A stretch of DNA of 64,000 bases. Source: Elusimicrobiota bacterium (GTDB lineage Bacteria > Elusimicrobiota > Elusimicrobia > UBA1565). A program made the position numbers and the translations under genes. The stretch lies in NCBI GenBank assembly GCA_043819795.1, contig JBDREN010000049.1, positions 2,379 to 66,378 of the forward strand. Direction: 5' to 3'. Below, piece by piece: positions 44,701 through 61,756 of this stretch (its first letter is position 1; every line of letters starts with the position of its first letter). The notes beneath the pieces are model-generated. The model saw nothing but the letters and a program-made list of their open reading frames with translations, was not told the origin of the DNA and made no database searches.

Positions 44701-45680
44701 ACCGTCTCCTGCTCACGGACATGCGGATGCCGGAGACGGACGGCGCGGACCTGGCGCGGGAGGTGCGCCGGGACCCGGCCTTGGCGGACGTTCCGATCGT
44801 GGTGATGACCTCGCTGGGGCAGTCGCTTCCCGCGGACCAGGCGCGCGAGGCCGGGATCGTGGGCTGGCTCTACAAGCCGGTCCGGTCGGCGGAGCTTCTC
44901 GCCTGTCTCGCCTTGGTCCTGGGCAAGGGCGGGCGGGAGCCCGCGGGGCCGGCGCCCGCACCTCCTCGATGGCGCGCGCGACGCAGACAGCGTCTTCGCG
45001 TGCTTCTCGTCGAGGATAACCCCGTGAACCGGAAAGTAGCCCTGATCCAGCTCGACAGGCTGGGGTACCAGGCCGACGCGGCGGCCAACGGCCTGGAGGC
45101 GCTCCGCGCGTTCGAGAAGGGCTCCTATGACCTGGTGCTCATGGACTGCGAGATGCCGGAGATGGACGGCTATCAGGCGACCGCGGAGATCCGCCGCCGC
45201 GAGGGGGCCCAGGATCGCGTCCCCATCATCGCCATGACGGCGCACGCGCTGAAAGGGGACCGCGAGAAGTGTCTGGCGGCCGGGATGGACGACTACGTCT
45301 CCAAGCCGGTCCGGTTCAAGGACCTGTCGGCGGCGCTGGCGCGCTGGGAGGATCCGCTGGACCGTTCCGTCGTGGACGATCTGCGCGAGGTCGCCGGCGA
45401 TGTGAGCGAGGTGGCCGGCGTCTTCCTGGAGGACGCCCCGAAGCGGATCGCGGCGATGCGCGGAGCCGTCTCGGCGGGCGATTCCCATAAGCTCGCTTTC
45501 GAGAGCCACCAGCTCAAGGGCGCGAGCGGCAGCATTGGCGCGAGGCGTCTGCGCCGGCTCTGCGCCCGGATCGAGGCGATCGCCAAGTCGGGCGCCGTCT
45601 CCGAGGTCGAGGGGCTCCTCAGCGGGCTGGAGGACGAGTTCCAGGAGGTTCAGGCGGGGCTCGAGAGGAATACTAGATAG
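41706..45680 (+). CDS. Hybrid sensor histidine kinase: GAF, multiple PAS/PAC, HisKA, HATPase_c, two receiver domains and a C-terminal Hpt domain
   Basis: GAF (FGTSVAYISLVDADREWF), several PAS/PAC repeats, H-box MSHELRTPLNAI, G-box GTGLGLAI, receivers (VLVVDDNAANR; VLLVEDNPVNR...DLVLMDCEMPEMDG) and Hpt (HQLKGASGSIGARRL). The start is uncertain (a TTG at 41706 per the track, or ATG 41763). Confidence 0.8.
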   Translation: MAAALDDKRGRNFLHYIKDMRAGRAGSEKARLAAAAESGLLDTPPEERFDRITRIARRHFGTSVAYISLVDADREWFKSRQGLRLRSVPREVSFGARVVRKSGVFSLVDARKDPKFSEHPLVAGGPRVRFVAACPLSTSDGSRVGALAIADRKPRRLGKGDLGALRDLARIAEAELRASGAHDPAAGTLRRVRDLQDFVDNVPELIQSVAPDGSFRYVNRAWRRALGYDEDDVARLNLFDIIAPESFAHCQDVFKRVMSGEYVQDMEAVFLAKGGGKVFLSGSANCHMESGKPTHTRAIFRDVTEQKRAEAELRKRTYELGERVKELNCLYGISALSERADISLEEFLQETAELILRSWQYPEVTCARITLEGREFRTRNFRESPWKQTADLQARGARFGSVEVYYLEKRPRRYEGPFLKEERRLLNAIAERLGKIAQRRRVEDALRKGEAGYRTLVDNLPQKVFLKDENSVYLSCNERYARDLKIRPEEILGRTDYEFFPRELAEKYRTDDKRIMESGRIEDLEEEYIEDGRRAIIQTVKTPIKDDSGVVVGVLGIFWDITERKRAEQKLRQLSLAVEHSPNIVMITDPEGKIEYVNPAFSSVAGYAPEDVLGRGAGELGEQSAEEQGRMWAAIRSGTVWRGEFPNKTKSGGSYWELASIAPIKDEDGNITHFVKVAQDITERKRMEAELAKARDQALAAAKAKAQFLAKMSHELRTPLNAIIGMSDLLLDTPLKHQQREYASTVHDSGEVLLSLINDVLDFSKLEVGKLQLESVEFDLRLLLEEAAQLCSFQAHAKGLEVLLAMPDDVPSALRGDSGRLRQILMNFLGNAVKFTEKGQVVLLASKEEEDERRAMLRLAVADTGLGIEPETQARLFEAFTQADASTTRRFGGTGLGLAISRQIIERMGGEFGVESSPGIGSTFWCRVPFEKAPGEGSAEAARKPDFSGARVLVVDDNAANREIMRERLSGWGMRPDVAAGAPEALDRLRREAAGPDPHRLLLTDMRMPETDGADLAREVRRDPALADVPIVVMTSLGQSLPADQAREAGIVGWLYKPVRSAELLACLALVLGKGGREPAGPAPAPPRWRARRRQRLRVLLVEDNPVNRKVALIQLDRLGYQADAAANGLEALRAFEKGSYDLVLMDCEMPEMDGYQATAEIRRREGAQDRVPIIAMTAHALKGDREKCLAAGMDDYVSKPVRFKDLSAALARWEDPLDRSVVDDLREVAGDVSEVAGVFLEDAPKRIAAMRGAVSAGDSHKLAFESHQLKGASGSIGARRLRRLCARIEAIAKSGAVSEVEGLLSGLEDEFQEVQAGLERNTR

Positions 45681-45712: not shown

Positions 45713-47005
45713 ATGACATCCGAAACCCGTGGGTACGCGATCGTCTTGAGCGCGCTCCTGCTTCTGGCCGGGGGAGCCGGGGCCGGTCATGCGGCGCCGG
45801 ACAAGCTGGGGAAGGTCAACGTCCTGGGCGTCTGGAAAGGCGAGGAGCTGCGCAGCTTCCGGGCCGTGGTGAAGCCGTGGGAAAAGGAGACGGGCGGCAA
45901 GATGCGTTTCGAGGGCAGCCGGGACCTGTCGGCCGTCTTGACGGCTCGGGCGGCGAAGGGCGACGCGCCCGACGTCGCCATCCTGCCCAATCCCGGCCTC
46001 ATGGTCCAGCTGGCGAAGACGAAGAAGCTCGTCCCCCTCGACGGGATGCTGGATATGACGCATTTCGAGGCGGAGTACGCGCGGACCTGGATCGAGCTGG
46101 GATCGGTGGAGGGCAGCCTCTACGGCGTCTTCTACAAGGCCGCCAACAAGAGCACGCTTTGGTACAGCCCCCAGCAGTTCTCCGACCACCAGTGGCCGAT
46201 CCCGCGGACCTGGAAGAGCCTCCTGGCGGTGTCGGAAAGGATCCACGAGGAGGGCAAGACCCCCTGGGCCCTGGGCCTGGAAAGCGGGGATGCGAGCGGC
46301 TGGCCGGCCACCGACTGGATCGGCGAGATCCTGCTCAAGGAGTACGGCCCGGAGAAATACGACGCGTGGGTCGCGCATGAGATCCCCTGGACCGACGAAG
46401 CCGTGCGCTCGGCGTGGGAGAATTTCGGGCGGATCGCGCACGGCGAGGGATACGTGGCGGGAGGCGCTTCCGGGATATTGACCACCGGCTTCCGGGAAGC
46501 GGCGTACCGGGTCTTCCGGAAGCCACCGAAGGCGTATCTCTACTTCCTCGGGAGCTTTACCAAGAAATTCATCACCGAGCGGTTCTCCGGCCTGATGCCG
46601 GCGAAGGACTATTCCTTCATCCCGTTCCCGGCCTTGAACCCCGCATACAGCGGGGCCGTGACCGGCGGGGCGGACGTGGTCGTCGTGTTCAAGGACAACG
46701 CGACCACGCGCTCGTTCATCAACTATCTCGCCTCGGCCGAGGCTCAGGAGATCTGGGTCGAGCGCGGGGGCTTCACGGCCGTCAACCGGAAGGTCAGGCT
46801 CCACAGCTATCCCGACTGGGTCTCCGCGCGGATCGCCTTGCAGCTGTCGAACGCCAAGGTCTTCCGCTTCGACGCCGACGACCAGATGCCGGCCGAGGTC
46901 CAGAAGGCCTTCTGGAAGGGAGCGCTCGACTACGTCCGTGATCAGGCGAGCCTGGACCGCGTCCTCGAAGACATCGAAGCCGTCGCCCGGAAGGCCTACC
47001 GGTAG
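45713..47005 (+). CDS. Extracellular solute-binding protein (ABC transporter SBP family 1-like), secreted
   Basis: Signal peptide and ~430 aa periplasmic-binding-protein fold. No cognate permease or ATPase genes in the window. Confidence 0.65.
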   Translation: MTSETRGYAIVLSALLLLAGGAGAGHAAPDKLGKVNVLGVWKGEELRSFRAVVKPWEKETGGKMRFEGSRDLSAVLTARAAKGDAPDVAILPNPGLMVQLAKTKKLVPLDGMLDMTHFEAEYARTWIELGSVEGSLYGVFYKAANKSTLWYSPQQFSDHQWPIPRTWKSLLAVSERIHEEGKTPWALGLESGDASGWPATDWIGEILLKEYGPEKYDAWVAHEIPWTDEAVRSAWENFGRIAHGEGYVAGGASGILTTGFREAAYRVFRKPPKAYLYFLGSFTKKFITERFSGLMPAKDYSFIPFPALNPAYSGAVTGGADVVVVFKDNATTRSFINYLASAEAQEIWVERGGFTAVNRKVRLHSYPDWVSARIALQLSNAKVFRFDADDQMPAEVQKAFWKGALDYVRDQASLDRVLEDIEAVARKAYR

Positions 47006-47177
47006 CGTTGAAGCGGCCCGCTCGTAATGGGAAGGCCGTTCCCAAGCGAATCCGCGAGAGAGTGAGCGTCCTGGCCGGGTCGCCGCGTCTGTGTCTCCCC
47101 GGAAGGAACGAATGAATGCGTAGGCCGCGGGGCGAGCTTGCGGCGCTGGAAAGAATCCGCCGGTGTTGAACGCCGGT

Positions 47178-47220
47178 CCGCACGGCTGGGGATAGATCGG
47201 GAAAGTCCCCAGCCGTGCGG
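47178..47220. other. Perfect 15-bp GC-rich hairpin (ccgcacggctgggga / tccccagccgtgcgg, 13-nt loop) followed by TGCTTTG
   Basis: Read directly. Could be an intrinsic terminator with a weak U-tract, or part of a structured RNA. Confidence 0.5.
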
Positions 47221-47470
47221 TGCTTTGAGGCCTGCCCGAGTATCCTAGCCCGAATTCCCCGTCTGGATCGCTGGATTCGACGCAAGATGCCGGGACTTTT
47301 CTGTGCGAAATGTCTCGACCGCACGGTTTCCTGACAGGGAGTGGAAGCGGCATTTCCTCGTGGTGACGCTTGGTCATGCCGCAGCGGGTACGCTCTCCAA
47401 ATTCCGCGTTGAACTGGCCTCGGCCTCTTGCATCTCGGTCCCACGCGCCCAACTGGGGAATCCGGGCCAG

Positions 47471-47773
47471 GTGTAGTGAACCATAAATCCCTTGACATTC
47501 GGGCGATCGATTTCGGCCTCCGGCTAGGCGCGGGGAGCGCGCATGCCCGCAGGTATGTAAGCGACGAGCAACGACGCCGGAAGCCAAAAGCGCCCGCCCC
47601 CTCCTCCTTGACGCGGACAGCGGCGAAATTCTATGGAAAGGGGAGGCCCGATCCCGGCCGATTCCCACGTTGCTCCTCGGTTGCATAGCTTAAGCCATGC
47701 GCCCTCATCGCGCCTCGAAATCGACTCGGGCTCGGGCCTCCAAATGACAAGGGATTTATGATTCACTACACTA
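47471..47773. mobile_element. Candidate MITE-like element: ~303 bp bounded by ~32-bp imperfect terminal inverted repeats (29/32 core identity, extended similarity with one 12-nt indel)
   Basis: Left arm gtgtagtgaaccataaatcccttgacattcgg. Right arm ccaaatgacaagggatttatgattcactacac is its near-exact reverse complement. The interior is non-coding. Two mirror-image 86-aa ORFs on opposite strands are artefacts of this symmetry. Confidence 0.45.
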
Positions 47774-47941
47774 GCGATGGCCACTTACTGATTCGGATGG
47801 GGCAAATCCTTTCTATAGCGCAGTATTGTTAAATATGAAACATGTGGCGCTGCTAAACGTTGCAAAAGAGAAACTAGAAGCAGTTTGGAGGCATTCTGAA
47901 CTGGTCAAAAAGAACGAAAAAAACGCAACTATTGGTGGCTA

Positions 47942-47970
47942 TTGCAAAATGGAACGATATCTGCTATAAT
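47942..47970 (+). promoter_or_regulatory. Sigma-70-type promoter (TTGCAA, 17 bp spacer, TATAAT) for the downstream sigma-54 activator gene
   Basis: TTGCAA at 47942-47947, exactly 17 nt of spacer, TATAAT at 47965-47970, ~40 nt upstream of ATG 48011. Embedded in an unusually AT-rich stretch. Confidence 0.55.
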
Positions 47971-48010
47971 AGAACCATAGCATACGTTTCCAGCCGCCGG
48001 GAGTTGATAT

Positions 48011-49369
48011 ATGCAGTTTGAAGGCCAAGGTCGTTTTTTCGAGACCATCCTCCGTTGTGTCGCTGACGGCGTGTTCACGGTGGACCGCGACTGGCGTATC
48101 ACCTCCTTCAATAAGGCGGCCGAGCGCATCACGGGCATGAGCGCCCGGCAGGCCATGGGCAAGAGATGCTCCGAAGTCTTTCACGCGGACCTCTGCGGTG
48201 ACGGCTGCGCCATCAGGCGGGCTCTCGAGACCAAACGCGAGGTCATCGAGCAGCCGGCCAATATCCGCGACCAGCGCGGCAGGGCGATCCCGATAAGCAT
48301 CAGCGCGGCCGTGCTTCGGGGGGAGGACGGGACCGTCCTCGGCGGGGTCGAGACGTTCCGCGACCTGTCGGCCATCGAGCAGCTCAGGCGCGAGATCCGG
48401 AGCCAGTACACCTTCGAGGAGATCGTCGGCAAGAGCGAGGCTTTCCAGAAGGTGTTCTCCATCCTGCCGGACGTCGCCGCCAGCGAGAGCACGGTCCTCA
48501 TCGAAGGCCCGAGCGGCTCCGGCAAACAGCTCCTGGCGCGGACCATACACAACCTGAGCCCCCGCCGGGATCGGCCTTACGTCGTGGCGAACTGCGGGAT
48601 GATGCCGTCCGGCCGCTGCGCGTCCGAGCTTTTCGGCCACGTGCGAGGCGCCTTCAAGGACGCCAAGGGGGACCGGCTCGGCCGCATCGCGCAGGCCGAA
48701 GGGGGGACCATCTTCCTGGACGAGATCGGCGACCTGTCGATGGAGAGCCAGGTCAGGCTCCTCAAGGTCCTTCGGGACGGAGAATACGAGCCGCTGGGCG
48801 GCGTCAGTCCCCGGCGCGCCGATGTGCGCGTGGTCGCTGCCACGAGCAAGAGCCTGCCGGATCTGGTCGGGCGGGGGCTTTTCCGCGACGATCTCTACTT
48901 CCGCCTGGCGGTGGTGCGGCTGAGCATACCGCCCCTGTCCGAGCGGCGCGAGGACATCCCCTGCCTGGTCGAGCACTTCGTCCAGCGCTTCAACGCCAAG
49001 CGCGGCAAGAGCATCCAGGGGGTGACGCCCGCGGCCATGGAGCTTCTCATGCGCCATGGTTTTCCCGGGAACGTGCGCGAGCTGGAGAACCTGATCGAAT
49101 GCGGCTTCGCTCTATGCCACGGCGGATGGATGGACGTCGGCCATCTGCCCGAGGATCTGAGGCCGTCGCGGCGGCCGGGCGCCGCCGGGCGCCGCCTCGA
49201 GGGCGCGTCCCTGCTCCGGCACATCGAGGCGGACGCGGTCCGCGCCTCCTTGGGGCGGAACGCGGGCCATCTCGGCCGCACGGCCGAGGAGCTGGGCATC
49301 AGCCGGACCACGTTGTGGCGCAAGATGAACAAGTACGCCATCGAAGCGGACGAGTTCCGGGCCGGTTGA
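48011..49369 (+). CDS. Sigma-54-dependent transcriptional activator with N-terminal PAS sensor (no receiver domain) and C-terminal Fis-type HTH
   Basis: PAS (VFTVDRDWRITSFNKAAERITG) with a Cys cluster (CSEVFHADLCGDGC). AAA+ sigma-54 interaction domain (LIEGPSGSGKQLLA, GAFKDA, ESQVRLLKVL...FRDDLYFRL). HTH_8 (ELGISRTTLWRKMNKY). Confidence 0.85.
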   Translation: MQFEGQGRFFETILRCVADGVFTVDRDWRITSFNKAAERITGMSARQAMGKRCSEVFHADLCGDGCAIRRALETKREVIEQPANIRDQRGRAIPISISAAVLRGEDGTVLGGVETFRDLSAIEQLRREIRSQYTFEEIVGKSEAFQKVFSILPDVAASESTVLIEGPSGSGKQLLARTIHNLSPRRDRPYVVANCGMMPSGRCASELFGHVRGAFKDAKGDRLGRIAQAEGGTIFLDEIGDLSMESQVRLLKVLRDGEYEPLGGVSPRRADVRVVAATSKSLPDLVGRGLFRDDLYFRLAVVRLSIPPLSERREDIPCLVEHFVQRFNAKRGKSIQGVTPAAMELLMRHGFPGNVRELENLIECGFALCHGGWMDVGHLPEDLRPSRRPGAAGRRLEGASLLRHIEADAVRASLGRNAGHLGRTAEELGISRTTLWRKMNKYAIEADEFRAG

Positions 49370-49388
49370 CCCGGGGGGAGAGAACGCG

Positions 49389-50762
49389 GTGAGCACCCAA
49401 AGGAAATACAGCTACTTCGTCGAGCCCAAGGCGCTCGAGGTCGCGGAGCGTCCGCGAAAATTCCTCATGGCATTCGCGGCCGTGCTGAAGAACGCCAGCT
49501 ACGGGCTGGCGCTCGATACGTACGCGCGCCTGAGCACCAAATGCGGGCGTTGCGTGGCCTCCTGTCAGCTCTATCAGACCACGCGCGAGGAGCGGGACAT
49601 CCCCTGCCATCGCTCCGAGCTCCTGCTGCGGGTGTACCGGCGGTACTTCACGCATTCGGGCCGCCTCAAGGCCAAGATATTCAGCGGTTTCGAGTTGACG
49701 GACGCCTACTTGGACGAGATGGGCGAGGCCTACTACCGCTGCACCGCCTGCCGGCGGTGCAAGGCCACCTGCCCCATGGGCATCGACCACGCCCTGGTCA
49801 CTCATCTGGCCCGGTGGCTGCTCTCGGAGATCGACGTCATCCCCAAGGCGCTGTTGGTGGCGACGCGCGAGCAGCTCGAGGGCGTCGGCAATACCTCGGC
49901 CATCCCGGTCCCCGCGCTCAAGGACACCTGCGAGTTTCTGGAGGAGGAGCTCAAGGAGATCACCGGCGTGGACATCAAGTTCCCCATGGATGTCGAGGGC
50001 GCCGAGTACGTCTTCTTCCCGGCGGTCTCGGACTATCTGCTCGAGGCGGACACCCTCATGGGCAACGCGGCCGTCATGCACGTCACCGGCGGGTCGTGGA
50101 CCATCGGCACGGGCAACTACGACGGCATCAACTACGGCCTGTTCTACAGCGATCGCATGATGGAGCGGATCGTCAACAACGTCGTCAAGGAGGTCCGCCG
50201 CCTCAAGGGGAGGAAGGTCCTCGTCGGCGAATGCGGCCACGCCACTCGCAGCGCCTGGTACGTGCCGGCCTTCGGCGGCCCGGACGCGCCGCCGGTGGTC
50301 AATTGCTTGCAGTACGCCCACCGGATGCTCGAGGCCGGGAAGCTCCCCCTGAAGAAAGAGCTTATCAAGGAGCGGGTCACCTATCACGATCCGTGCAATA
50401 TCGCCAGGAGCGGGCGGATCACCGAGGAGCCTCGGGAGCTCCTTAAGGCTATCTGCGGGGACTTCGTGGAGATGACGCCGAACCGCGCGGAGAACTACTG
50501 CTGCGGCGGAGGCGGCGGCACGGTCTCCATCGACGAGATCCGGGCTTTCCGCACGGGTCTCATGGGAAAGCGCAAGGCGGATCAGATCCGCGCGACCGGC
50601 GCCAAATACGTCGTGTCGCCCTGCGCCAACTGCAAGAAACAGCTCCGCGAGGTCTGCGAGGACAACGGCCTCAACGAGGTCGAGGTCGTGGGCCTGCACG
50701 ACCTGCTGCTGAAGGCGATCGACTTCGGGGTCCCCGAGAAGAAAGGAGAGGACGATGGGTGA
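49389..50762 (+). CDS. DsrK/HdrD/HmcF-like iron-sulfur oxidoreductase (CCG-domain protein)
   Basis: Ferredoxin-type CxxCxxCxxxCP motifs (CGRCVASCQ; CTACRRCKATCP) and C-terminal CCG-domain motifs (PCNIA...YCCGGGGG...SPCANC). Confidence 0.75.
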   Translation: MSTQRKYSYFVEPKALEVAERPRKFLMAFAAVLKNASYGLALDTYARLSTKCGRCVASCQLYQTTREERDIPCHRSELLLRVYRRYFTHSGRLKAKIFSGFELTDAYLDEMGEAYYRCTACRRCKATCPMGIDHALVTHLARWLLSEIDVIPKALLVATREQLEGVGNTSAIPVPALKDTCEFLEEELKEITGVDIKFPMDVEGAEYVFFPAVSDYLLEADTLMGNAAVMHVTGGSWTIGTGNYDGINYGLFYSDRMMERIVNNVVKEVRRLKGRKVLVGECGHATRSAWYVPAFGGPDAPPVVNCLQYAHRMLEAGKLPLKKELIKERVTYHDPCNIARSGRITEEPRELLKAICGDFVEMTPNRAENYCCGGGGGTVSIDEIRAFRTGLMGKRKADQIRATGAKYVVSPCANCKKQLREVCEDNGLNEVEVVGLHDLLLKAIDFGVPEKKGEDDG

Positions 50763-51465
50763 GCTAGAGATCTGGACCGAGTGGGCGCGCGGGCCGCTGT
50801 TCAGGGCCGCGCTGGCGTTCATGATCCTGGGCCTTCTGCGTCACGCGGCGTTGACCATATGGGAGCTGGCGGGGATCATGTACCGCGCCGGCGACAAGGC
50901 CTTCCCGTGGAGGCGGGCATTCTCCGCCACGCTAAAATGGCTTTTCCCGGTGGGGCAGATCAAGAACCGTGTCCTCTACAGCCTGACCACGCTCGGCTTC
51001 CATGCCGCCGTCATCATCGTTCCCGTTTTTCTCGCGGGCCACGTCGCGCTCTGGGAGCGGGGCACGGGCCTGTGCTGGCCGACCATCCCCAACGGCGTGG
51101 CGGACGTGCTGACGATCATGGCCGTGCTCGCGGCGGCCTTGCTCGTGGCGGAGCGCGCGGCCGCGCGGGACTCCCGGGCGCTGAGCCGCTTCCAGGACTA
51201 CGCCTTGCCCCTGCTCGTGGCCGCGCCCTTCGCGACCGGCTTCCTGGTCATGCATCCGGCTTTAAACCCGTTCGGCCATGAAGCGACGATTCTGGTCCAC
51301 GTGTTGAGCGCGGATATTCTGTTCATCCTCATCCCGCTGACCAAGCTGAGCCACATGATCCTGCTCCCGGGCACGCAGATCATCTCCGAGCTGTCCTGGC
51401 ATTTCCCGCCGGACGCCGGCAGGAAAGTGGGCGTCGATCTCGGGAAGGAGAAGCAACCCATATGA
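50755..51465 (+). CDS. DsrM/HmcE/NarI-like di-heme b membrane subunit
   Basis: Five TM helices with conserved His pairs placed as in the nitrate-reductase gamma family. Translationally coupled to flanking genes. Confidence 0.65.
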   Translation: MGELEIWTEWARGPLFRAALAFMILGLLRHAALTIWELAGIMYRAGDKAFPWRRAFSATLKWLFPVGQIKNRVLYSLTTLGFHAAVIIVPVFLAGHVALWERGTGLCWPTIPNGVADVLTIMAVLAAALLVAERAAARDSRALSRFQDYALPLLVAAPFATGFLVMHPALNPFGHEATILVHVLSADILFILIPLTKLSHMILLPGTQIISELSWHFPPDAGRKVGVDLGKEKQPI

Positions 51466-52595
51466 AGAAGCCCGTCGCCATCCTTACGGACACGACGCTC
51501 TGCACCGGCTGCGAGGAATGCGTCGCGGCGTGCAAGAAGGAGAACGGCCTGGGCGAGGATCGCCGGTGGCGCTGGCAAAGCTCCGTGAGCGAGCTTTCCG
51601 CGTCGCGCTTCACCGCAATCATCCGTCGGCCCGGCAACCGCTACGTCCGCCAGCAGTGCCGGCACTGCGTGGACCCGGCGTGCGTGAGCGCCTGCATCGT
51701 GGGCGCGCTGCGGAAGACGGAAGAAGGCGCGGTGGTCTACGACCAGGATAAGTGCATCGGCTGCCGTTACTGCATGCTGGCCTGCCCCTACGGGATCCCG
51801 CGCTACGATTGGGAGAAGCCGATCCCGTACATCAGGAAGTGCACGCTCTGCTATGACAGGCTTGAGGAGGGAAAGGCCCCCGCCTGCGTGGAGGCCTGCC
51901 CCGAGAAGGCGACGATATTCGGCTCCCGCTCCGATATGCTGGCCGAGGCCCATCGGCGCCTGAAACGGCATCCCGGGAAGTACGTCCAGAAGGTCTACGG
52001 GGAACGCGAGGTGGGGGGGACGTCGGTCCTCTACATCTCGGACATACCCCTTGATTTCCTCGGCTGGCAGACCGATCCCGGCGAGCGGCCGCTGCCGGAC
52101 CTCACGTGGGCCGCCCAAAGGAAGATCCCGGCCGCGGCTCTGGGGGTGTTCGGGCTCATGGGCGGCACCTACTGGGTCATCGGCCGGAGGATGCAGGCCG
52201 CGGCGCGGGCGGGCCTGAAAGACGCGCCCCGGGAAGGGGACGCCCCGTCCGTGGGGCACGGGCATCCGGAGCAGGGAGGGGCCCTCTCCGGCCTGAAGAC
52301 GGCCCTGTGGATGCCTCTCGGCGTGGTGGCGGCCGTGACCATCGTGCGTTTCGCGCGGAATCTGGACGCGGCCGCGAGCCTCGGGGACGGAGCCCTCTGG
52401 ACCCTGTGGCTCGCCCTCGGCGTGGCGGGAGGCACCGGTCTCGGGGCGGGGATCCATTGGCTCGCCGCCCGCCGCAAGAAGGCGCCGGAGGAGGACGCGG
52501 AGCCCGAGGAAGGAACTCCCACCCCGCCCGTCCAGGCGTCGAAGACTTCCGTTCCCAAGCAGATCGCGGGCGACGGCGGCCCGAAGGAGCGATAG
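51462..52595 (+). CDS. DsrO/HmcB/PsrB-like four-cluster [4Fe-4S] ferredoxin-type subunit with C-terminal membrane anchor
   Basis: Four CxxCxxCxxxC(P) motifs (CTGCEECVAAC, CRHCVDPACVSAC, CIGCRYCMLACP, CTLC...ACVEACP) and 2-3 C-terminal TM helices. No obvious Tat signal. Confidence 0.7.
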   Translation: MKKPVAILTDTTLCTGCEECVAACKKENGLGEDRRWRWQSSVSELSASRFTAIIRRPGNRYVRQQCRHCVDPACVSACIVGALRKTEEGAVVYDQDKCIGCRYCMLACPYGIPRYDWEKPIPYIRKCTLCYDRLEEGKAPACVEACPEKATIFGSRSDMLAEAHRRLKRHPGKYVQKVYGEREVGGTSVLYISDIPLDFLGWQTDPGERPLPDLTWAAQRKIPAAALGVFGLMGGTYWVIGRRMQAAARAGLKDAPREGDAPSVGHGHPEQGGALSGLKTALWMPLGVVAAVTIVRFARNLDAAASLGDGALWTLWLALGVAGGTGLGAGIHWLAARRKKAPEEDAEPEEGTPTPPVQASKTSVPKQIAGDGGPKER

Positions 52596-52599
52596 GGCG

Positions 52600-54561
52600 A
52601 TGATGCCTCTGAGAAGAATCAAGAGCCTGCTCTGGTTCGTCCTGGGCGCGGGCATGGTGACCATCGCCGCGCGGCTGCTCACCGGGCTCGGCGCGGTCAC
52701 CAACCTGTCCCACAACGTTTCCTGGGGCCTGTGGAACGCGGTCAAGATCAGCATCGTGCCCCTCTCGGCCGGAGGGTTCGTTTTGGCTGCGATCGTCTAC
52801 GTCTTCCATATGGAGAGGTTCCGTCCCGTGCTCCGTTTGGCCATCCTTACGGGGTTTTTGGGCTACTCGACCTTCGCCACGATGCTCATGTTCGATATCG
52901 GGGTGCCCTACCGGATATGGCATCCCATGGTCTACTGGCAGCACCATTCCGTGCTCTTCGAAGTGGCGTGGTGCGTGATGCTGTATCTGACCGTGCTGGC
53001 CCTCGAGTTCTTGCCCAACGTGCTGGAGCATCCTCTGCTGAAGCACCCCCTGCTCCAGAAGGGATACAAGCTCCTGAAGAGCGCGACCGTACCCCTGGTG
53101 ACCGCGGGGATCGTGCTGTCCACGCTGCACCAGTCGTCGTTGGGCTCGCTGTTTTTGATCGTCCCCCACCGTCTCGATCCCTTATGGTACAGCCCGCTGA
53201 TACACGCGCTCTTCCTGGTCTCCGCCGTCGGGATGGGGCTTCTGGTGATCGCCGTGGAGGCGGTCCTGATCGAGCGTCTCTACGGCGTCAAGGCGCCGCT
53301 GGACGTCCTCGCCCCTTTGGCCCGCGCGGGCGCGGTGGTGATGGCCCTCTTCTTGGCCGTCAGGCTGGCCGACCAGGTCGCTCGCGGGGTGCTCCCGGGT
53401 GCTCTGAGCACATCTCCGATGGCGGCGGCATTCGTCCTTGAGACTCTGATCGCCTCGATCGTGCCGCTGCTGCTTCTGCGCAGGAGCGTCCGCGAGAGCC
53501 GCGGGGGCCTGTTCGCCTGCTCTCTTTCCGCGGTGCTGGGAGTCGTCTGGTACAGGTCGAACGTCGCCTTGCTGGCCATCGACTGGGGCGAGGCGGCCTA
53601 TTTCCCGGCGTGGACCGAGTTCGCCCTGTGCTTCGGCATACTGGCCGGGTCGGGCTTGGTGTTCTTCTTGCTGCTGGAGAACCTGGACATTTATTACGGG
53701 CCGGCCGCATCCGGCCGTGACCGCGAGCCGCAGGTGCCGGGGTTGGCGTTCGAGGCTTGGCTGGCGGACGCGAGGATCACCGCGGCCAGGCGCTATTCCC
53801 TGTTCATCGTGGCGGGCGCGGCGGCGGCCGTCTTGTTTCTCCCCGAGGGCACGGTGTTCGGAGCCAGGCCCGCGGACACGCCGGCGGCGCAGGCCCGGCG
53901 GGTCCGGGGCTTGTCGGTCCGGACCGGCGGCGGACGCGTCAGCACGCTGCGCCTCGGCGAGAGGCCGGTCCCCGCTAAGGGCCGAGTGAAGCGCCTGCCG
54001 CTTTACCTGATTGACGGCGACCGCGATGAGGACGCGGTCCTCTTCGATCACGCGGGCCATGTCAAGCGGGCGGGCGGCGAGAAGCGCTGCGGGGTGTGCC
54101 ATCACCTGAACATGCCGCTCGACGAGAACACCTCCTGCCATGAATGTCATCGCGACATGTACGAGCCCGCCTCCGTGTTCAGCCACGCATCGCATGTGCG
54201 CGAACTCGGGGGGAACGCGGGCTGCGTCAAGTGCCATGAGGATCCTCTCGTGGTGAAGGACCGCCGGACGGCCGTCGCTTGCGGGGAATGCCACTCCGAT
54301 TCGGCGGCAAAGGGCTCCTTCGTCGAGGCGCCGGGGCCGAGGTGGGGGGCCGCGCCGGGCTACGCGGACGCGATGCACGGCCTCTGCGAGAGTTGTCATA
54401 AGAAGAAGGCGAAAGAAGAGCCGGGCCGTTATCCCGCGGCGCTGGGGCGTTGCGCCGCCTGCCACGATACGGACCGCCCCATGGATATCCGTCGGATGGC
54501 GCCGCGAAGTGATAGAATGCGGGCCATGCGCGCCGAGGAACGCGGGCTCTCGGGCGGCTGA
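52600..54561 (+). CDS. NrfD/PsrC/DsrP-like polytopic membrane subunit fused to a C-terminal hexaheme cytochrome c domain (DsrJ/HmcA-like)
   Basis: ~10 TM helices of the NrfD family over ~430 aa, then a soluble C-terminal domain with six CxxCH motifs (CGVCH, CHECH, CVKCH, CGECH, CESCH, CAACH). Confidence 0.7.
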   Translation: MMPLRRIKSLLWFVLGAGMVTIAARLLTGLGAVTNLSHNVSWGLWNAVKISIVPLSAGGFVLAAIVYVFHMERFRPVLRLAILTGFLGYSTFATMLMFDIGVPYRIWHPMVYWQHHSVLFEVAWCVMLYLTVLALEFLPNVLEHPLLKHPLLQKGYKLLKSATVPLVTAGIVLSTLHQSSLGSLFLIVPHRLDPLWYSPLIHALFLVSAVGMGLLVIAVEAVLIERLYGVKAPLDVLAPLARAGAVVMALFLAVRLADQVARGVLPGALSTSPMAAAFVLETLIASIVPLLLLRRSVRESRGGLFACSLSAVLGVVWYRSNVALLAIDWGEAAYFPAWTEFALCFGILAGSGLVFFLLLENLDIYYGPAASGRDREPQVPGLAFEAWLADARITAARRYSLFIVAGAAAAVLFLPEGTVFGARPADTPAAQARRVRGLSVRTGGGRVSTLRLGERPVPAKGRVKRLPLYLIDGDRDEDAVLFDHAGHVKRAGGEKRCGVCHHLNMPLDENTSCHECHRDMYEPASVFSHASHVRELGGNAGCVKCHEDPLVVKDRRTAVACGECHSDSAAKGSFVEAPGPRWGAAPGYADAMHGLCESCHKKKAKEEPGRYPAALGRCAACHDTDRPMDIRRMAPRSDRMRAMRAEERGLSGG

Positions 54562-54565
54562 AACC

Positions 54566-55681
54566 ATGGCCCCCAAAGAGATAGAAAGCTGGCTTCGATC
54601 GAGCCTCTTTAACGAGGTCCCGGTGAGCATCTGCGTGATCGACCGGGGTTTCCGGATCATCGAGGCGAACCGGAGGTTCAGGGAGGAATACGGCCCCTGG
54701 AAGGACCGGGCGTGCCACGAGGTCTGCAAGGGTCTGGAGGAGCCCTGCGAGCGTTGCGGCGCGGTCAAGACCTTCTCGGACGGGCGCGTGCGCAACCGGG
54801 AGGAGACGGGAGCGGGCGGGAAGCACTACCTGGTGCACATGGTCCCCATCACCACCGACGGCGGGGATATCTCCTACGTCATCGAGACGTTCACGGATAT
54901 CACGCAGGTGAAGCAGCTGGAGGGCGAGAAGCGCGAAGCCGAGCGTCTGGCCGCCGTCGGCGAGACCGTGGCCGGCATCGCCCACGGCATGAAGAACGTG
55001 CTTACCGGGCTCGAAGGCGGCGTCTATGCCGTCAATACGGGCATCCAGCATGGCGACGACGAGAGGATCACCGAAGGCTGGGCCATGCTCGAGGAGAATA
55101 TCGCGCGCATCTCGGAGTTTGTCAAGGAGTTCCTGGCTTTCTCCAAGGGGCGCATCGCGCGGGTGGCCTTCGTGGACCCCAACGCCCCGGCGCGGGCGGT
55201 CTTTGAGCTCTTCCGGGAGAAGGCCGCGCAGGCGGGCATCGAGCTGAAGGCGGACCTGCAAGAGGGGATTCCTCCCGCGCCCCTGGACGAGCAGGGGATC
55301 CACGCCTGCCTGGCCAACCTCGTATCGAACGCCCTGGACGCCTGCTCCATGGGCGAGCAGCGGCGCGCGTGCGTGGTGACGATTCGCTCCCGGGAGCGCA
55401 GCGGGACGCTAGTGTACGAGGTTGCGGACAACGGCCGCGGGATGGACTACGAGATCAGTAGGAAAGTGTTTTCGAGGTTCTTCAGCACGAAGGGCTCGGA
55501 CCGGGGCACGGGTCTGGGGCTGCTCACCACTAAGAAGACCATCCACCAGCACGGCGGCCGGGTCTCGTTCAGCTCCGAGGAGAGCAGGGGCTCGGTGTTC
55601 CGCATCGAGCTTCCCCGGGAAAGACTGCCCAAGCCGGGCGGGAAGCCCGCCCAACGACAGGCCGCGGAAGGAGACGCCTGA
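54566..55681 (+). CDS. PAS-domain sensor histidine kinase (cytoplasmic; PAS with Cys4 cluster)
   Basis: PAS (ICVIDRGFRIIEANRRF) with CHEVCKGLEEPCERC. H-box AHGMKNVL, N/G boxes (LVSNALDA, GTGLGL). Start set at ATG 54566. Confidence 0.8.
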   Translation: MAPKEIESWLRSSLFNEVPVSICVIDRGFRIIEANRRFREEYGPWKDRACHEVCKGLEEPCERCGAVKTFSDGRVRNREETGAGGKHYLVHMVPITTDGGDISYVIETFTDITQVKQLEGEKREAERLAAVGETVAGIAHGMKNVLTGLEGGVYAVNTGIQHGDDERITEGWAMLEENIARISEFVKEFLAFSKGRIARVAFVDPNAPARAVFELFREKAAQAGIELKADLQEGIPPAPLDEQGIHACLANLVSNALDACSMGEQRRACVVTIRSRERSGTLVYEVADNGRGMDYEISRKVFSRFFSTKGSDRGTGLGLLTTKKTIHQHGGRVSFSSEESRGSVFRIELPRERLPKPGGKPAQRQAAEGDA

Positions 55682-56229
55682 TGGACAAAGAGAACGCCAA
55701 AGGACGCGCCGAGGATAAGACCGTACTCGTGGTCGATGACGAGCCGAACGTGCGCCGCCACCTGGCCCACATCCTAGAGGACGCCGGCTTCAAGGTCCTT
55801 ACGGCCTCCGATGGGGATGAGGCCCTGAAGACCATCCGGGAGCGGCGCCCGGACATCATCTCGCTCGACCTGGTCATGCCGCGCAAGAGCGGGCGCCGGC
55901 TGCTCTACGAGCTGAAGAAGGATAAGGAGCTCTCCCGCATCCCGGTGGTCATCGTCACCGCGCACGCCCAGGACGAGCTGGGCCAGAGCGACATGGAAGC
56001 CATCAGGGAGAGCATGATCATATCGGGCCCGGGCTTCTATCTGGAGAAGCCGGTTAGGCCCATGGACTACGTGCGCTGCATCCAGGAAGCCCTGGGCATC
56101 GAAGTGGCGGATCAAGCCGCGGACAAAGTCAGCCTCAAGGACGAGCTGAAGCGGCAGATGCAGGGGGCGGAGCCGCACGCGCTGCGCCGCGCCCTCGAGG
56201 CGTTGAGAAAGAAAGGCCCGCCGCGCTAG
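55681..56229 (+). CDS. Response regulator, receiver domain with C-terminal extension (no DNA-binding domain recognised)
   Basis: VLVVDDEPNVRRHL...DIISLDLVMPRKSG...VVIVTAH receiver signature. Confidence 0.75.
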   Translation: MDKENAKGRAEDKTVLVVDDEPNVRRHLAHILEDAGFKVLTASDGDEALKTIRERRPDIISLDLVMPRKSGRRLLYELKKDKELSRIPVVIVTAHAQDELGQSDMEAIRESMIISGPGFYLEKPVRPMDYVRCIQEALGIEVADQAADKVSLKDELKRQMQGAEPHALRRALEALRKKGPPR

Positions 56230-56248
56230 AGGGCCGAGGAGACCTGCG

Positions 56249-56602
56249 ATGGCGAAGAAGATCCTGATCGTCGAAGACGAGCCGCACGTCGTGAAGTATC
56301 TCGAGATGTTCCTCCACGACGCGGGCTTCCAGACGGTATCCGCGAGCGACGGTCAGACGGGTCTGGAGCTGGCCAAGCGCGAGAAGCCGGACCTGGTGAT
56401 CCTGGACCTTATGATGCCGAAGAAGACGGGGACGGACTTCTACCGGAAGCTCTCCAGGGACAAGGAGCTCGGCGATACCCCCGTCATCGTGGTCAGCGGT
56501 CTGGCCGGCCGAGATCTCGTCGTCAGGAAGCCTGCGGCGGTGTTCGACAAGCCCCCGGACCGCGAGGGGCTCATCGCCGCCATCAAGAAAGCCCTCCCGT
56601 AG
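56249..56602 (+). CDS. Single-domain response regulator (CheY-like)
   Basis: ILIVEDEPHVVKYL...DLVILDLMMPKKTG..PVIVVSG. Confidence 0.8.
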   Translation: MAKKILIVEDEPHVVKYLEMFLHDAGFQTVSASDGQTGLELAKREKPDLVILDLMMPKKTGTDFYRKLSRDKELGDTPVIVVSGLAGRDLVVRKPAAVFDKPPDREGLIAAIKKALP

Positions 56603-56651
56603 AGCCCCGGCTTCTGGAGCTTGCCCGGAGCAGGTATCCGGGCGACCGCCC

Positions 56652-56676
56652 CGGCAGGAACGTTGCGTGCTATAAT
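56652..56676 (+). promoter_or_regulatory. Candidate sigma-54 (-24/-12) promoter cGGcaggaacgttGCg overlapping a TATAAT box, upstream of the hydrogenase operon
   Basis: GG at 56653-56654 and GC at 56665-56666, separated by exactly 10 nt (consensus TGGCAC-N5-TTGCA). TATAAT at 56671-56676. A sigma-54 activator is encoded at 48011. Confidence 0.4.
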
Positions 56677-56708
56677 CCTGTGAGAACGCGGCGCCGGGGG
56701 GAAGTCCG

Positions 56709-57752
56709 ATGCTGTACAAGGTGATCACGAAGGCCGAGTTTCGGAAGTTCGTCGACGGCCTGATCCAGGACAACCAGACTATAGGCCCCAAGCGGGTCGC
56801 CACGGACGCGAAAGGCAAGCCCGTCTACCAGTTTGTCGAGGTCCGCTCCTTCGACGAGTTGGACCTCGACTACACGATCACCTACTCCTCGGTGAAGAAT
56901 TTCTTCCACCCCTTCCGCGAGGAGCTGTCTCGTTTCAAGCTGAAAGATGACGATTGGGAGCAGGAGATCGAATACCGCGTCAATCCGAGGGTCATCATCG
57001 GCGTGCGGCCGTGCGACATCAACGCCTTGGCGATCCTGGACAAGGTGTTCTTGAGCGGGAGATTCCCCTCGCCGTACTACATCGCCCGGCGCCGGAACAC
57101 CTTCCTGATCGGAATGGACCATCTGCCCCTGGATGACTGCTTCTGCGAGTCCCTGAACCGGCACGCCCCGCGCGAGGGGTTCAACCTCTACTGCTCGGAC
57201 ATCGGGGACAGATACTATCTCTCGATCCTTTCCTCAAAGGCCTTCAGCTTCCTCAAGAACGTGAGGACGAGCGAGCCCTCCAAGGCGGACAACAAAAGAT
57301 ACATCGAGAGAAGAAAGCTCATCAAACGGAGCTTCAAGACCAAGGTGGAGGTCTCGGGCCTGCCGAGCTTCCTGGACATCGAGTTCAAGTCCCCGATATG
57401 GGATAAATGGGGGGACAAGTGCCTGAACTGCGGGACATGCGCCATGGTCTGCCCCACGTGCTACTGCTACGGGGTGGAGCAGTCCGTGGACGTGGACCTG
57501 AAGACCGCCCGCAAGGAGCGCATGCTGTACTCCTGCAACGTCGTGGATTTCGCGGAGGTGGCCGGAGGGCACAACTTCAGGCCGAAGAAGGCGGACAGGC
57601 TGAAGTACCGGTTCTATCACCATTACAGGGGTTTCGAGGAGAACGCCGACGAGCAGATCTGCGTTGGCTGCAACCGGTGCGGCAGGGCCTGCCTGGCGGG
57701 GATCAACCCGAAGGACGTGATCAACGACTTGAGGCTGGAGACCGGAGAATGA
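56709..57752 (+). CDS. Group 3b [NiFe]-hydrogenase beta subunit / anaerobic sulfite reductase AsrA-like iron-sulfur subunit
   Basis: AsrA/HydB-like Cys clusters ([16 protein letters not shown]; [14 protein letters not shown]). Confidence 0.75.
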
Positions 57753-58663
57753 AGGCGGGATTCAAAATACCCAGGCAGGACATCAATCTCGAGCCGTTCA
57801 TGACGGCGCCTCCCCAGTTCAACCGCAAGACCATCGTCATGCGCACGGACAAGGTCTACAAGTGCGAGCTCATCAACATCGTCGAGCTGACCTCCATGGA
57901 GAAGCTCTTCCATCTCAAGATCATCGACCCCCGCGAGAGGAAGCTGTTCTCCTTCCGGCCGGGACAGTTCGTGATGGTCCAGGTGCCCGGCTCCGGGGAG
58001 GTCCCGGTCTCCATATCGAGCTCGAGCAACAACCGGGAGTTCCTGGAGCTGTGCGTCCGCAGGGCGGGGCGCACCACCGGCATGCTGCACCGGGCCCGGA
58101 TCGGCGCGAAGGTGGGGATCCGCGGGCCCTTCGGCTCGTCTTTCCCCATGGAGGAGATGGCTGGCCACAACGTCCTGCTGATCGCCGGAGGGCTCGGCCT
58201 GGCCCCCCTGCGCGCCCCCATCTGCTGGGTCAACGAGCGCCGGGACCAGTACGGCGACGTCCACATCCTCTACGGCGCCAAAGAGCCTTCCCAGATGCTC
58301 TTCACGTACGAATTCAAGGAATGGGAACGGGTGAACCACATCAATCTGCTGACCATCGTCGAGAAGGCGGACAAGGCCTGGAAGGGCGGGACGGGCCTCA
58401 TCACCGAGCTCTTCAGGGATTTCTCCATCAAGCCGCTCGACACCTACGCGATCGTGTGCGGGCCGCCCGTCATGTTCAAGTTCGTGTGCGGGCATCTGGA
58501 CTCCATCGGGGTTCCCATGAACCGCATGTTCGTCTCCCTGGAGCGGCGGATGCACTGCGGCATGGGCAAGTGCTGCCGGTGCATGGTGGGCTCGACGTTC
58601 ACCTGCGTGGAAGGCCCCGTGTTCGACTACTGGAGCGTCATGAATTTGAAGGAGGCGATTTGA
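57749..58663 (+). CDS. Group 3b [NiFe]-hydrogenase gamma subunit / AsrB-like FAD-NAD(P) oxidoreductase with [2Fe-2S] cluster
   Basis: Ferredoxin-reductase-type FAD/NAD-binding fold ([20 protein letters not shown]) and C-terminal CGMGKCCRC...C cluster. Start set at ATG 57749, overlapping the upstream stop. Confidence 0.75.
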
Positions 58664-59415
58664 GATACCTCGGCATCGAGCTCAAGAAGCCCAGGATCGC
58701 CGTCTTCGACTTCACCTGCTGCGAGGGCTGCGAGCTGCAGCTGGCGAACAAGGAGGAGACCCTGGTCGATTTCCTCTCCCTTGTCGAGGTCGTGAACTTC
58801 CGGGAGGTGTCCTCGGACAAGAGCGAGGACTACGAGATCGCCTTCGTGGAGGGGGCGGTCTCGAGGGAGGATGAGGTCGCTCGCCTGAAGAAGATCAGGG
58901 TGAACGCGAAGGTCCTCGTGGCTTTCGGCGCCTGCGCCTGCTTCGGCGGCGTGAACCAGATCAAGAACAAGTTCCCGCTCAAGTCGGTCGTCCGAGAGGT
59001 GTACGGCAGGCACCGCGTGGCCACGTCCAAGGTGCGGAAGATCAGCGAAGTGGTCAAAGTGGATCTCGAGATCCCGGGCTGTCCGGTCTCCAAGAAAGAG
59101 GTGGAAAGGATCGTCGTCGCTCTGGTCACGGGCGCGGGCATCAGCCTGCCGAAGTACCCCGTCTGCCTCGAGTGCAAGGCGAAGTGCAACGTCTGCGTCC
59201 TGGACCTCGGGCAGATCTGCCTGGGTCCGATCACGCGCGCGGGCTGCGATTCGCCCTGCCCATCCGGGGGGACCGCGTGCCTGGGCTGCAGGGGGCCGGC
59301 GCCCGAGGCCAATTACGAGTCGTTCCTGCGGATATTGAAAGACCGGGGCTTCAAGGCCCCGGAGATCAAGGAGAGGCTCGAGTTCTACGGCGCCTTCAAC
59401 GGGGTCATGAGATGA
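58660..59415 (+). CDS. [NiFe]-hydrogenase small (delta) subunit, group 3 type
   Basis: Proximal-cluster Cys ligands ([10 protein letters not shown]; GACACFGG; PGCP). TTG start at 58660 after AGGAGG. The track ORF in this frame is artificially extended upstream. Confidence 0.75.
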
Positions 59416-60686
59416 AGCGCGCCAGGGAGATCACCGTACGCCATGTGACCCGGGTCGAGGGCCACGGCGACATCCATATCAAGGTGAAAGACGGCCGGCT
59501 CGTGGATGCGCGGTGGGCCGTGGTGGAGACCCCGCGTTTCTTCGAGGCCATGCTCAAGGGCATGTCCCATGATCTGGCGCCCATACTGACGGCCAGGATC
59601 TGCGGCATCTGCTCCATAGGCCACTGCCTGGCGAGCCTGAGGGCGGTGGAGAGGGCCATGGACGTCAAGGTCCCGGAGACCGCGCGGCTGTTGCGCCTGC
59701 TCGCCAAGCACGGCGAGACCCTTCAGAGCCACGCGCTCCACGTGTTCTTCCTGTCCGCGCCCGATCTCTTCAAGGTGGGGAGCGTCATCCCCCTGATCAA
59801 GTCCCATCCCGAGGTCGTCGGCATCGCGGCCAGGCTCAAGAAGCTGGGAAACGACGCTTGCGACCTGATCGCGGGGCGGACCACGCACCCGGTGAGCCTG
59901 GTGGTGGGCGGGCTCAGCAGGCTGCCCACGGACAAGCAGATCGAGGAGCTGAGGGGCGCGTTCCTTGCGAGGCTGCCGGACATGCGCGCGGCCGTCGACC
60001 TCTTCAAGACGCTTCCCATGCCGGACTTCCAGCGGGAGACGGAGTTCGTGTCATTGAAGGGCCAGGGGGACTATCCCTGGATCGGGGGGGATCTCGTGTC
60101 GTCCGACGGCGTCCGCAGGCCGGAGGACGGCTACCTGGCCATGACGAACGAATACAAAGTGGAGTTCAGCACCTCGAAGTTCGCCAAGCTGAGTAGGGAG
60201 TCCTTCGCGGTCGGCGCCCTGGCGAGGTTCAACAACAATCACAAGCATCTGCGGCCGGAGGCGAAGGGAGCCGCCAAGGCGCTGGGCTTGAGTCCCCTGA
60301 GCCACAACCCTTTCATGAACAACGTGGCCCAGCTCGTGGAATGCTATCACGTGATGCTGGAGTCCATCGAGTTGCTGGACGGGCTTCTGGGCCGCCGGGG
60401 AAAGACCGCGTCCCGTCCTTATAAAGTGAAGGCCGGCCGGGGCGTCGCCGCCGTGGAGGTGCCCCGGGGCATCCTCTACCACGAATACGAGCTCGACAAG
60501 AAGGGCAAGGTCGTCAGGGCGAACTGCGTCATCCCCACCACGCAGAACCACGCCAACATCCACCACGATCTCCGGGCGCTCGCCGCGCGGCTGGTGCGGG
60601 AAGGCAAAAGCGACGGGGAGATCACTTTGCTGAGCGAGATGCTGGTCCGGTCCTACGACCCCTGCATCTCCTGCTCCGTCCACTAG
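59412..60686 (+). CDS. [NiFe]-hydrogenase large (alpha) subunit, group 3b type
   Basis: N-terminal Ni-Fe ligands [10 protein letters not shown] and C-terminal DPCISCSVH. The protein ends exactly at the His, with no C-terminal extension. Start ATG 59412 overlaps the small-subunit stop. Confidence 0.85.
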
Positions 60687-61591: not shown

Positions 61592-61706
61592 GTGGCTTCC
61601 TCCTGAGCGTGCGGCCGGCCAGCTCGTAGATGGTATGAAAAAAAGCGGGCGGCGGACCCGGGCCCGAGTCCCGCCGGAAGCATCCTACATGTGTTCGGTC
61701 AGGTTA

Positions 61707-61735: not shown

Positions 61736-61756
61736 ATATAGAGTAGCTTTGTAATA

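Follow-up and report, generated by a model that had tools for sequence, protein, structure and literature searches.

The 64,000-nucleotide stretch of an Elusimicrobiota bacterium (contig JBDREN010000049.1) that was analysed here, in the following the window, carries at 49389-54561 a four-gene operon for a predicted membrane redox complex. Gene prediction and profile searches confirmed the operon as a real four-gene unit. The cassette represents a widespread variant, so far undescribed, of the Hmc/Tmc complexes known from sulfate reducers. Its products, designated F, E, B and C::cyt, probably assemble into a compact two-module complex of the Hmc/Tmc type that would connect the quinone pool with cytochromes of the periplasm and a sulfur carrier of the cytoplasm. 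The two-module reading is supported because the cofactor ligands are invariant in 48-69 relatives and the gene order is kept in 48 of 56 loci, and further because dsrAB genes are linked to the cassette in five loci and a DsrMK-like gene pair in eleven. A description of the cassette was not found in the literature on NrfD subunits, Qrc, DsrMKJOP, Hmc/Tmc genetics, Geobacter Cbc and new Dsr lineages, a coverage that is incomplete and thus weak evidence. The genes are:

49389-50762, plus strand: F, 457 aa, cytoplasmic CCG iron-sulfur protein of the DsrK/HmcF/TmcB family (Pfam CCG and Fer4, NCBIfam)
50755-51465, plus strand: E, 236 aa, membrane cytochrome b of the TmcC/HmcE type (NCBIfam, hydropathy)
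51462-52595, plus strand: B, 377 aa, four-cluster ferredoxin of the HybA/HmcB type (Fer4_11, NCBIfam)
52600-54561, plus strand: C::cyt, 653 aa, NrfD subunit with an 11th helix and a hexaheme cytochrome c

In the list of open reading frames (ORFs), these four plus-strand frames fill the interval with spacings of -8, -4 and +4 nt; the G+C content of the window is about 66 %. Families were assigned by NCBIfam and Pfam profile scores, with the curated equivalog cut-offs of NCBIfam as yardstick. The hidden Markov model (HMM) E-values of the cassette assignments ranged from 1e-34 to 1e-85, chance is no issue at this level. A preliminary description of this DNA had proposed the five functional parts of a DsrMKJOP-like complex in the gene order K-M-O-P, with the cytochrome fused to the NrfD subunit. 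Profile scores and motifs located all five parts in 49389-54561, the order agrees with F-E-B-C at exact ORF coordinates, and six CxxCH motifs are situated C-terminally in C. The name needs an adjustment. Membership in the Dsr/Hmc/Tmc superfamily held, but B and C score as Hmc/Hyb-type and not as DsrO/DsrP-type proteins. Because of these HMM scores, and because E and F occur in the Tmc order, "Hmc/Tmc-like" is a more accurate label than "DsrMKJOP-like".

The best NCBIfam models for F were DsrK with 274 bits (cut-off 400), TmcB with 203 bits (cut-off 735) and HmcF with 200 bits (cut-off 750). A sequence search against the PDB returned a single distant CCG protein and nothing else, and no transmembrane segment was predicted in F. 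The protein contains eight cysteines for two cubane [4Fe-4S] clusters (C52/55/59/73 and C118/121/124/128), the cysteine C282 of a GECGH motif and one five-cysteine CCG motif, CX34CCGX39CX2C (C336/371/372/412/415), all of them invariant in 48 of 48 sequences. A single CCG motif together with a T/GECGH cysteine is common to DsrK, HmcF and TmcB and has been tied to the reduction of di- and trisulfides in a study of DsrMKJOP. By the definition of that study, F presents the DsrK-type trait. For E, the scores against TmcC (126 bits, cut-off 240) and HmcE (117 bits, cut-off 275) both remained below the cut-offs, and the only other model matched was QmoC. Pfam returned no match for E, the NarI family Nitrate_red_gam included. 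On these model scores the affiliation is with the Dsr/Hmc/Tmc superfamily, as proposed, and not with the NarI/FdnI membrane anchors. Hydropathy predicts five transmembrane helices in E, and a count of loop charges predicts an outer N-terminus and an inner C-terminus. The histidines H83, H96, H182 and H200, putative ligands of two hemes b, are kept in 54-60 of 60 sequences.

C::cyt combines three parts:

52600-53694, plus strand: membrane part of C, a 10-helix quinone-reactive subunit of the NrfD family, HybB/HmcC/QrcD clade (Pfam NrfD, NCBIfam)
53791-53859, plus strand: 11th transmembrane helix of C (hydropathy peak; helix 382-413 of the structural model)
54049-54465, plus strand: hexaheme cytochrome c domain of C, c3/c7-like, all hemes predicted to be bis-His coordinated (Pfam Cytochrom_CIII and Cytochrome_C7)

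The membrane part obtained 224 bits with HmcC (cut-off 550), 222 with HybB (450), 124 with QrcD and 28 with DsrP (350). C is 33 % identical to HybB of Escherichia coli. Its residues R79, Y89, E136 and H177 are the counterparts of R89, Y99, E148 and H184 of HybB and invariant in 57 sequences. Replacement of these HybB residues impairs hydrogen oxidation, as summarized in a review on NrfD proteins, and the HybB/HmcC/QrcD clade was inferred to comprise electrogenic quinone reductases (Duarte et al.). At residues 42-55 (in window positions 52600-52800) two clades of C differ, the window clade reads WGLWNAVKI and the mainstream clade WGLWIGFDVM. The AlphaFold2 (AF2) model of C shows 11 helices at a predicted local distance difference test (pLDDT) score of 74, and the top Foldseek matches in the PDB are ActC and ActF of alternative complex III (ACIII); a search of C::cyt against the PDB by sequence gave no match. 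Over 57 sequences, the predicted inner loops hold a median of 13 lysines and arginines, the outer loops 3. The 11 helices and this positive-inside count place the N-terminus of C inside and predict a periplasmic location of the heme domain.

The confidence of the AF2 model is low in the heme domain, the Foldseek comparison therefore concerns the membrane part. The six CxxCH motifs of the domain, at residues 497, 513, 542, 561, 596 and 618, are invariant in all 57 homologues. Six further histidines are invariant as well (H484, H487, H502, H529, H532 and H593), and no extra conserved cysteine is present in the domain among the 57 homologues. Scores against the NCBIfam model of HmcA were 26-31 bits (cut-off 400). 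One related locus (L001) encodes this hexaheme domain as a free protein of 197 aa with a signal-like N-terminus. This locus harbours on the minus strand (12172-17865) a Tmc-like paralogous cluster of a sigma-54 activator, F' (54 % identical to F), E', the free hexaheme cytochrome and a 191-aa protein of unknown function.

For B, the NCBIfam scores were 246 bits with HmcB (cut-off 420), 209 with HybA (263) and 120 with DsrO (200). The 16 cysteines for four [4Fe-4S] clusters are invariant in 69 of 69 sequences. B shares 38 % identity with HybA of E. coli in an alignment that begins at HybA residue 38, past the RRNFIK signal. B has a C-terminal membrane anchor with GRRMQ behind it; in HybA, RRNTK stands at the corresponding place. 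Towards its end, B of the window contains an additional segment:

52284-52472, plus strand: relic in B, aa ~275-337, a copy of helices 1 and 2 from a C of the mainstream type, fused in frame

In the Gemmatimonadota/Planctomycetota clade, residues ~5-66 of C match the 63 residues of the relic with an identity of 44-51 % (E 1e-13 to 1e-16), while C of the window itself reaches just 30 %. The B proteins of relatives have 250-285 aa; that of the window is longer by two further transmembrane helices, and the same tail is present in the closest relative (L082). The segment resembles the remnant of a gene replacement or recombination. A tandem duplication had been considered as origin of the tail and was rejected: the self-comparison of the DNA was negative, and the protein comparison pointed to a diverged relic of another C allele.

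A scan with one genome per species revealed at least 592 relatives of the fused protein, of which 80 loci were kept, all from metagenome-assembled genomes (MAGs); thousands of relatives are present in databases. The cassette occurs in more than ten phyla, including Planctomycetota, Gemmatimonadota, Acidobacteriota, Ignavibacteria/Kapabacteria, Zixibacteria, Chloroflexota and Thermodesulfobacteriota. The fusion of NrfD subunit and cytochrome was observed in 68 of the 80 loci, and F-E-B was located directly upstream of C::cyt in 48 of the 56 loci with enough upstream sequence. F is by far the best-conserved protein of the cassette with 78-85 % identity across phyla, C reaches about 45 % and the heme domain about 37 %. 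A pyridine-nucleotide disulfide oxidoreductase is encoded near the cassette in three loci (L083, 5658-7319; L027, 9760-11451; L049, ~15979-16989). That of L083 is fused to a rhodanese domain (Pfam) and resembles CoADR/NPSR, a further hint of sulfur chemistry.

Six planctomycete loci (L006, L007, L009, L011, L012 and L015) have E-B-C::cyt without F, kinase or activator within the flanks. They speak for a cassette that acts mainly as quinol:cytochrome c or cytochrome c:quinone oxidoreductase in periplasmic or extracellular electron transfer, comparable to Nhc/Ohc, Qrc or Cbc4 of Geobacter, with E-F as an accessory input and without a central role of thiol chemistry. B-C::cyt alone indeed resembles the modules of cytochrome, iron-sulfur protein and NrfD subunit, and CbcBA/BccR of Geobacter is a precedent for the sigma-54 control of an inner-membrane cytochrome complex. 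Nevertheless, such a role is improbable for a cassette in which F is conserved best, is present in 48 of 56 loci and has all catalytic residues intact. Genes for an outer-membrane conduit were not seen in the window.

In the two-module complex of the Hmc/Tmc type, module 1 would consist of B and C::cyt and resemble HybAB, HmcBC and Qrc. Electrons would pass between the periplasmic hexaheme c domain and a menaquinone site of the 10-helix C subunit, close to its outer face, by way of the four [4Fe-4S] clusters. The protons would probably be taken from the cytoplasm, which would render this step electrogenic. Module 2, composed of E and F, would resemble TmcCB, DsrMK and HdrED: the di-heme cytochrome b would carry electrons across the membrane to the CCG protein F, where the noncubane [4Fe-4S] cluster and the GECGH cysteine may act on a protein-bound di- or trisulfide, by reduction or by oxidation. 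In the presence of dsr genes, DsrC-trisulfide would be the most likely substrate of F. Expression is probably governed by a sigma-54 activator with a cysteine-bearing PAS domain and by a kinase with two receiver proteins, all encoded next to the cassette. The direction of the electron flow may be either; a relay from menaquinol to a cytoplasmic thiol/disulfide, as first proposed, is plausible.

At the end of the window, the preliminary description had placed a second pair of M/K-type genes at 62269-64000. A NarI-family protein and a truncated DsrK-like protein are indeed encoded there:

62269-63156, plus strand: M2, NarI-family membrane protein (Pfam Nitrate_red_gam, 33.5 bits)
63149-64000, plus strand: K2, DsrK-like CCG protein, truncated at the window border (139 bits with NCBIfam DsrK over the 283 aa present)

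Full-length relatives of K2 score 320-334 bits with DsrK (cut-off 400). Eight of the 80 loci have the M2/K2 pair as a neighbour of the cassette, and a metagenome scan with K2 added three further loci of this kind. The closest relative of K2 in that scan, from locus L084, is 81 % identical, and M2 is 69 % identical to the M protein of the same locus. L084 (1534-15490) contains dsrN-dsrD-dsrB-dsrA and, in divergent orientation, genes for DsrO with a signal for twin-arginine translocation (Tat), a DsrP-like protein, M, K and HdrA-like proteins; its DsrA, DsrB and DsrO exceed the curated cut-offs. Paralogues dsrM2K2 beside dsrAB were already known.

Among the 48 called ORFs of the window, 46 of them scanned with Pfam, no dsrAB, apr, qmo or sat gene was detected. 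Absence of the first three had been noted before and was taken as a sign of a Dsr-independent use of the complex. This conclusion is not warranted because the absence covers only 64 kb while five related loci carry dsrAB; a relative of M2/K2 stands in a dsr locus, and the window ends inside K2. Of the 68 fused loci, five (L027, L065, L067, L068 and L069), which derive from Acidobacteriota, Bacteroidota and an unclassified MAG, have dsrA and dsrB downstream of the cassette at a distance of 2-5 kb. These genes are often accompanied by dsrD, dsrN and a conserved gene for a 143-aa protein. Most cassette loci have no dsr genes in the flanks. Thus, the association of cassette and Dsr is real but facultative.

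The cassette could be the dedicated electron-transfer complex of the Dsr pathway in this lineage, a replacement or partner of DsrMKJOP that reduces DsrC-trisulfide. Genes for DsrAB and DsrC would then lie elsewhere in the genome, possibly just past the end of the window. Such a function is possible rather than probable. The top model of F is DsrK, dsrAB with or without dsrD and dsrN is near the cassette in the five loci, the adjoining M2/K2 is DsrMK-like with its closest relative in a dsrABDN-dsrO-dsrP-M-K locus, and the dsrM2K2 paralogues provide a precedent. However, dsrAB was within the fetched flanks of only these five of the 68 fused loci. The cassette is present in at least 592 species genomes, whereas a 950-genome dsrAB survey affiliated only about 11 % of 902 bacterial dsrAB genomes to phyla outside the canonical groups, and the main text of the survey names neither Planctomycetota nor Gemmatimonadota. 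An earlier survey listed Planctomycetes among the phyla encoding dsrABCD. Furthermore, B, C and E match DsrO, DsrP and DsrM poorly or not at all, the six hemes are predicted to be bis-His coordinated with no DsrJ-like His/Cys heme among them, and a DsrC gene is not found nearby.

Several observations also weigh against the two-module complex favoured here. None of the four subunits attained an NCBIfam cut-off for Dsr, Hmc, Tmc or Hyb. In the window clade, Lys49 of C takes the position of Asp58 in the modelled quinone site of HybB. A DsrC-like ORF was present neither in the window nor in 82 related loci. DsrC may not be the general substrate, because the most frequent carriers of the cassette in this sample, Planctomycetota and Gemmatimonadota, are the phyla that the main text of the dsrAB survey does not name. 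A sigma-54 promoter with at most one mismatch was not found in the window, and the matches obtained in the promoter search there did not exceed chance (14 against 16.9 expected); in relatives, good -24/-12 promoters precede the operon. Finally, a Tat signal was detected in none of 73 relatives of B (0/73), which leaves the wiring of module 1 uncertain. The 61 codons before the start of B in the window contain neither a start codon nor a twin-arginine motif, and 73 of 73 relatives start about 10 residues ahead of the first cluster motif, those of low-GC genomes included. A Tat-bearing partner is not encoded in the cassette. Since B has no Tat signal, its presumed periplasmic site comes without a known export route. 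Either B is exported by an unknown route, or it resides in the cytoplasm with a wiring unlike that of every known NrfD-type module with the orientation of C.

The cassette could also be a self-contained, horizontally spread module of many phyla that do not reduce sulfate, with F acting on a carrier other than DsrC and B exported independently of Tat or facing the cytoplasm. We regard this as rather unlikely. A candidate for the thiol or persulfide carrier of F would then be a small Nitro_FeMo-Co (NifX-like) protein with a conserved cysteine, whose gene lies between activator and F in most relatives, e.g., in L001, L003, L010, L013, L016, L046 and L051. The gene is missing in the window, where the gap between activator and F measures only 19 bp. 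In Ignavibacteria and Zixibacteria the NifX-like gene is longer and encodes an additional Cys-rich domain (CPxCGK...AICCGAH).

The preliminary description had named a sigma-54 activator, a two-component system and a cytoplasmic hydrogenase as neighbours of the operon, and Pfam and NCBIfam searches recovered all three:

48011-49369, plus strand: sigma-54 enhancer-binding protein, PAS-AAA+-HTH without receiver (Pfam Sigma54_activat, 190 bits; PAS; HTH_8)
54566-55681, plus strand: PAS histidine kinase (Pfam HATPase_c, PAS_4); the ATG at 54566 is probably the true start
55681-56229, plus strand: receiver protein 1 (Pfam Response_reg), a receiver domain with a tail of ~60 aa and no DNA-binding domain, kept 3' of the kinase
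56249-56602, plus strand: receiver protein 2 (Pfam Response_reg), a receiver domain alone, kept 3' of the kinase
56709-60686: cytoplasmic [NiFe] hydrogenase of four subunits: beta (ShyB/AsrA-like), gamma (FAD/NAD, from 57749), small, and large (from 59412)

A homologue of the activator is encoded at a distance of at most 7 kb in 23 of 46 fused loci, and kinase and receiver follow downstream of the cassette in 26 of 46. The PAS domain of the activator has a cysteine triad (C53, C62, C66) that is kept in 25 of 35 homologues. The triad of the kinase (C69, C80, C83 in the numbering of the ORF) is kept in 37-38 of 40 sequences and its H159 in 40 of 40. The three-cysteine motifs of both proteins suggest a metal, Fe-S or redox sensor.

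With HybA and HybB among the top-scoring models and a [NiFe] hydrogenase operon beginning 106 bp past the second receiver gene, B and C might be taken for the HybA/HybB-type membrane module of this hydrogenase. The idea is effectively refuted: the neighbouring enzyme is of the four-subunit cytoplasmic type, and a hydrogenase adjoins the cassette in none of the 80 related loci (0/80). The adjacency in the window is incidental.

The remaining neighbourhood showed few further features. Rfam gave no match over 46900-64000. The non-coding stretch of 1 kb upstream of the sigma-54 activator gene contains at 47471-47771 an element of 301 bp with 32-nt inverted repeats (91 % complementary), similar to a miniature inverted-repeat transposable element and the sole copy in the window. 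Ahead of M2/K2, a MerR-family regulator (61757-62272) is rich in cysteine in its C-terminal half (CWELVRC...C...C...C...CRSC); in locus L094, too, M2 is preceded by a MerR homologue. Two genes further upstream, for a solute-binding protein (45713-47005) and for a hybrid sensor kinase of 1324 aa (41706-45680) that combines GAF, several PAS domains, a kinase core, two receivers and an Hpt-like end, showed no link to the cassette.

Hmc and Tmc are regarded as specialities of sulfate reducers. Their cytoplasmic partner is unknown, opposite directions of electron flow have been proposed for the two complexes, and both questions are debated. A compact relative of fixed architecture in hundreds of uncultured species, some with dsrAB and a DsrMK-like pair and some without, offers a natural comparison for the study of function. 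The family could mark cryptic sulfur or thiol-linked respiration in genomes from soil and sediment. The signal-less HybA-like B poses a concrete puzzle on the assembly of such complexes; a Tat-free export of B without partner, or a cytoplasmic face, would if true be a topology new for NrfD-type modules of standard orientation.

Among the characterized systems, hydrogenase-2 of E. coli shares with the cassette the proton-path and active residues of HybB, kept in C, and the pattern of the tail anchor. In contrast to HybAB and QrcCD, the cassette has no hydrogenase or QrcB-like partner, and its cytochrome is fused to the membrane subunit. HybA carries a Tat signal and B none, and the equivalent of Asp58 is a lysine in the window clade. 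Nhc/Ohc and Cbc4 (CbcSTU) of Geobacter, with a physiological role unknown or partly known, are likewise modules of cytochrome c, iron-sulfur protein and NrfD-type subunit, but lack the pair of cytochrome b and CCG protein and have the cytochrome as a separate protein. Cbc6 of Geobacter was considered as an Hmc analogue and dropped, its listed subunits look like ACIII. DsrMKJOP (Hme) resembles the cassette in the five-part architecture and in the cytoplasmic single-CCG protein with GECGH motif, for which DsrK was the top model. It differs in DsrM, to which E has no match, in DsrO and DsrP, for which the scores were below the cut-offs, and in DsrJ, a triheme cytochrome with a His/Cys heme in place of six bis-His hemes. 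A true DsrO, as in L084, has a Tat signal, the iron-sulfur subunit B of the cassette has none.

With Tmc the cassette shares the position of the CCG gene before the cytochrome b gene, TmcC is the best-scoring model for E, and locus L001 contains the Tmc-like paralogue. Tmc is devoid of the iron-sulfur/NrfD module and has a free tetraheme c3 (TmcA) and TmcD, both of which are missing in the cassette. Hmc of Desulfovibrio (HmcABCDEF) possesses a separate periplasmic HmcA with 16 hemes, whereas the cassette has six hemes fused to the NrfD subunit. Its genes are ordered A-B-C-D-E-F; the cassette has the order F-E-B-C::cyt and no HmcD or extra ORF. Unlike Hmc, the cassette has a B without signal peptide, its own sigma-54 and two-component regulators, scores far under the equivalog cut-offs and a distribution mostly outside the Desulfobacterota. 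Nevertheless, both consist of the same cofactor modules: a multiheme cytochrome c, a tail-anchored protein with four [4Fe-4S] clusters, an NrfD subunit with 10 transmembrane helices, a di-heme cytochrome b and a CCG protein. In NCBIfam, B and C score highest with HmcB and HmcC, and a weak match to HmcA was obtained for the heme domain.

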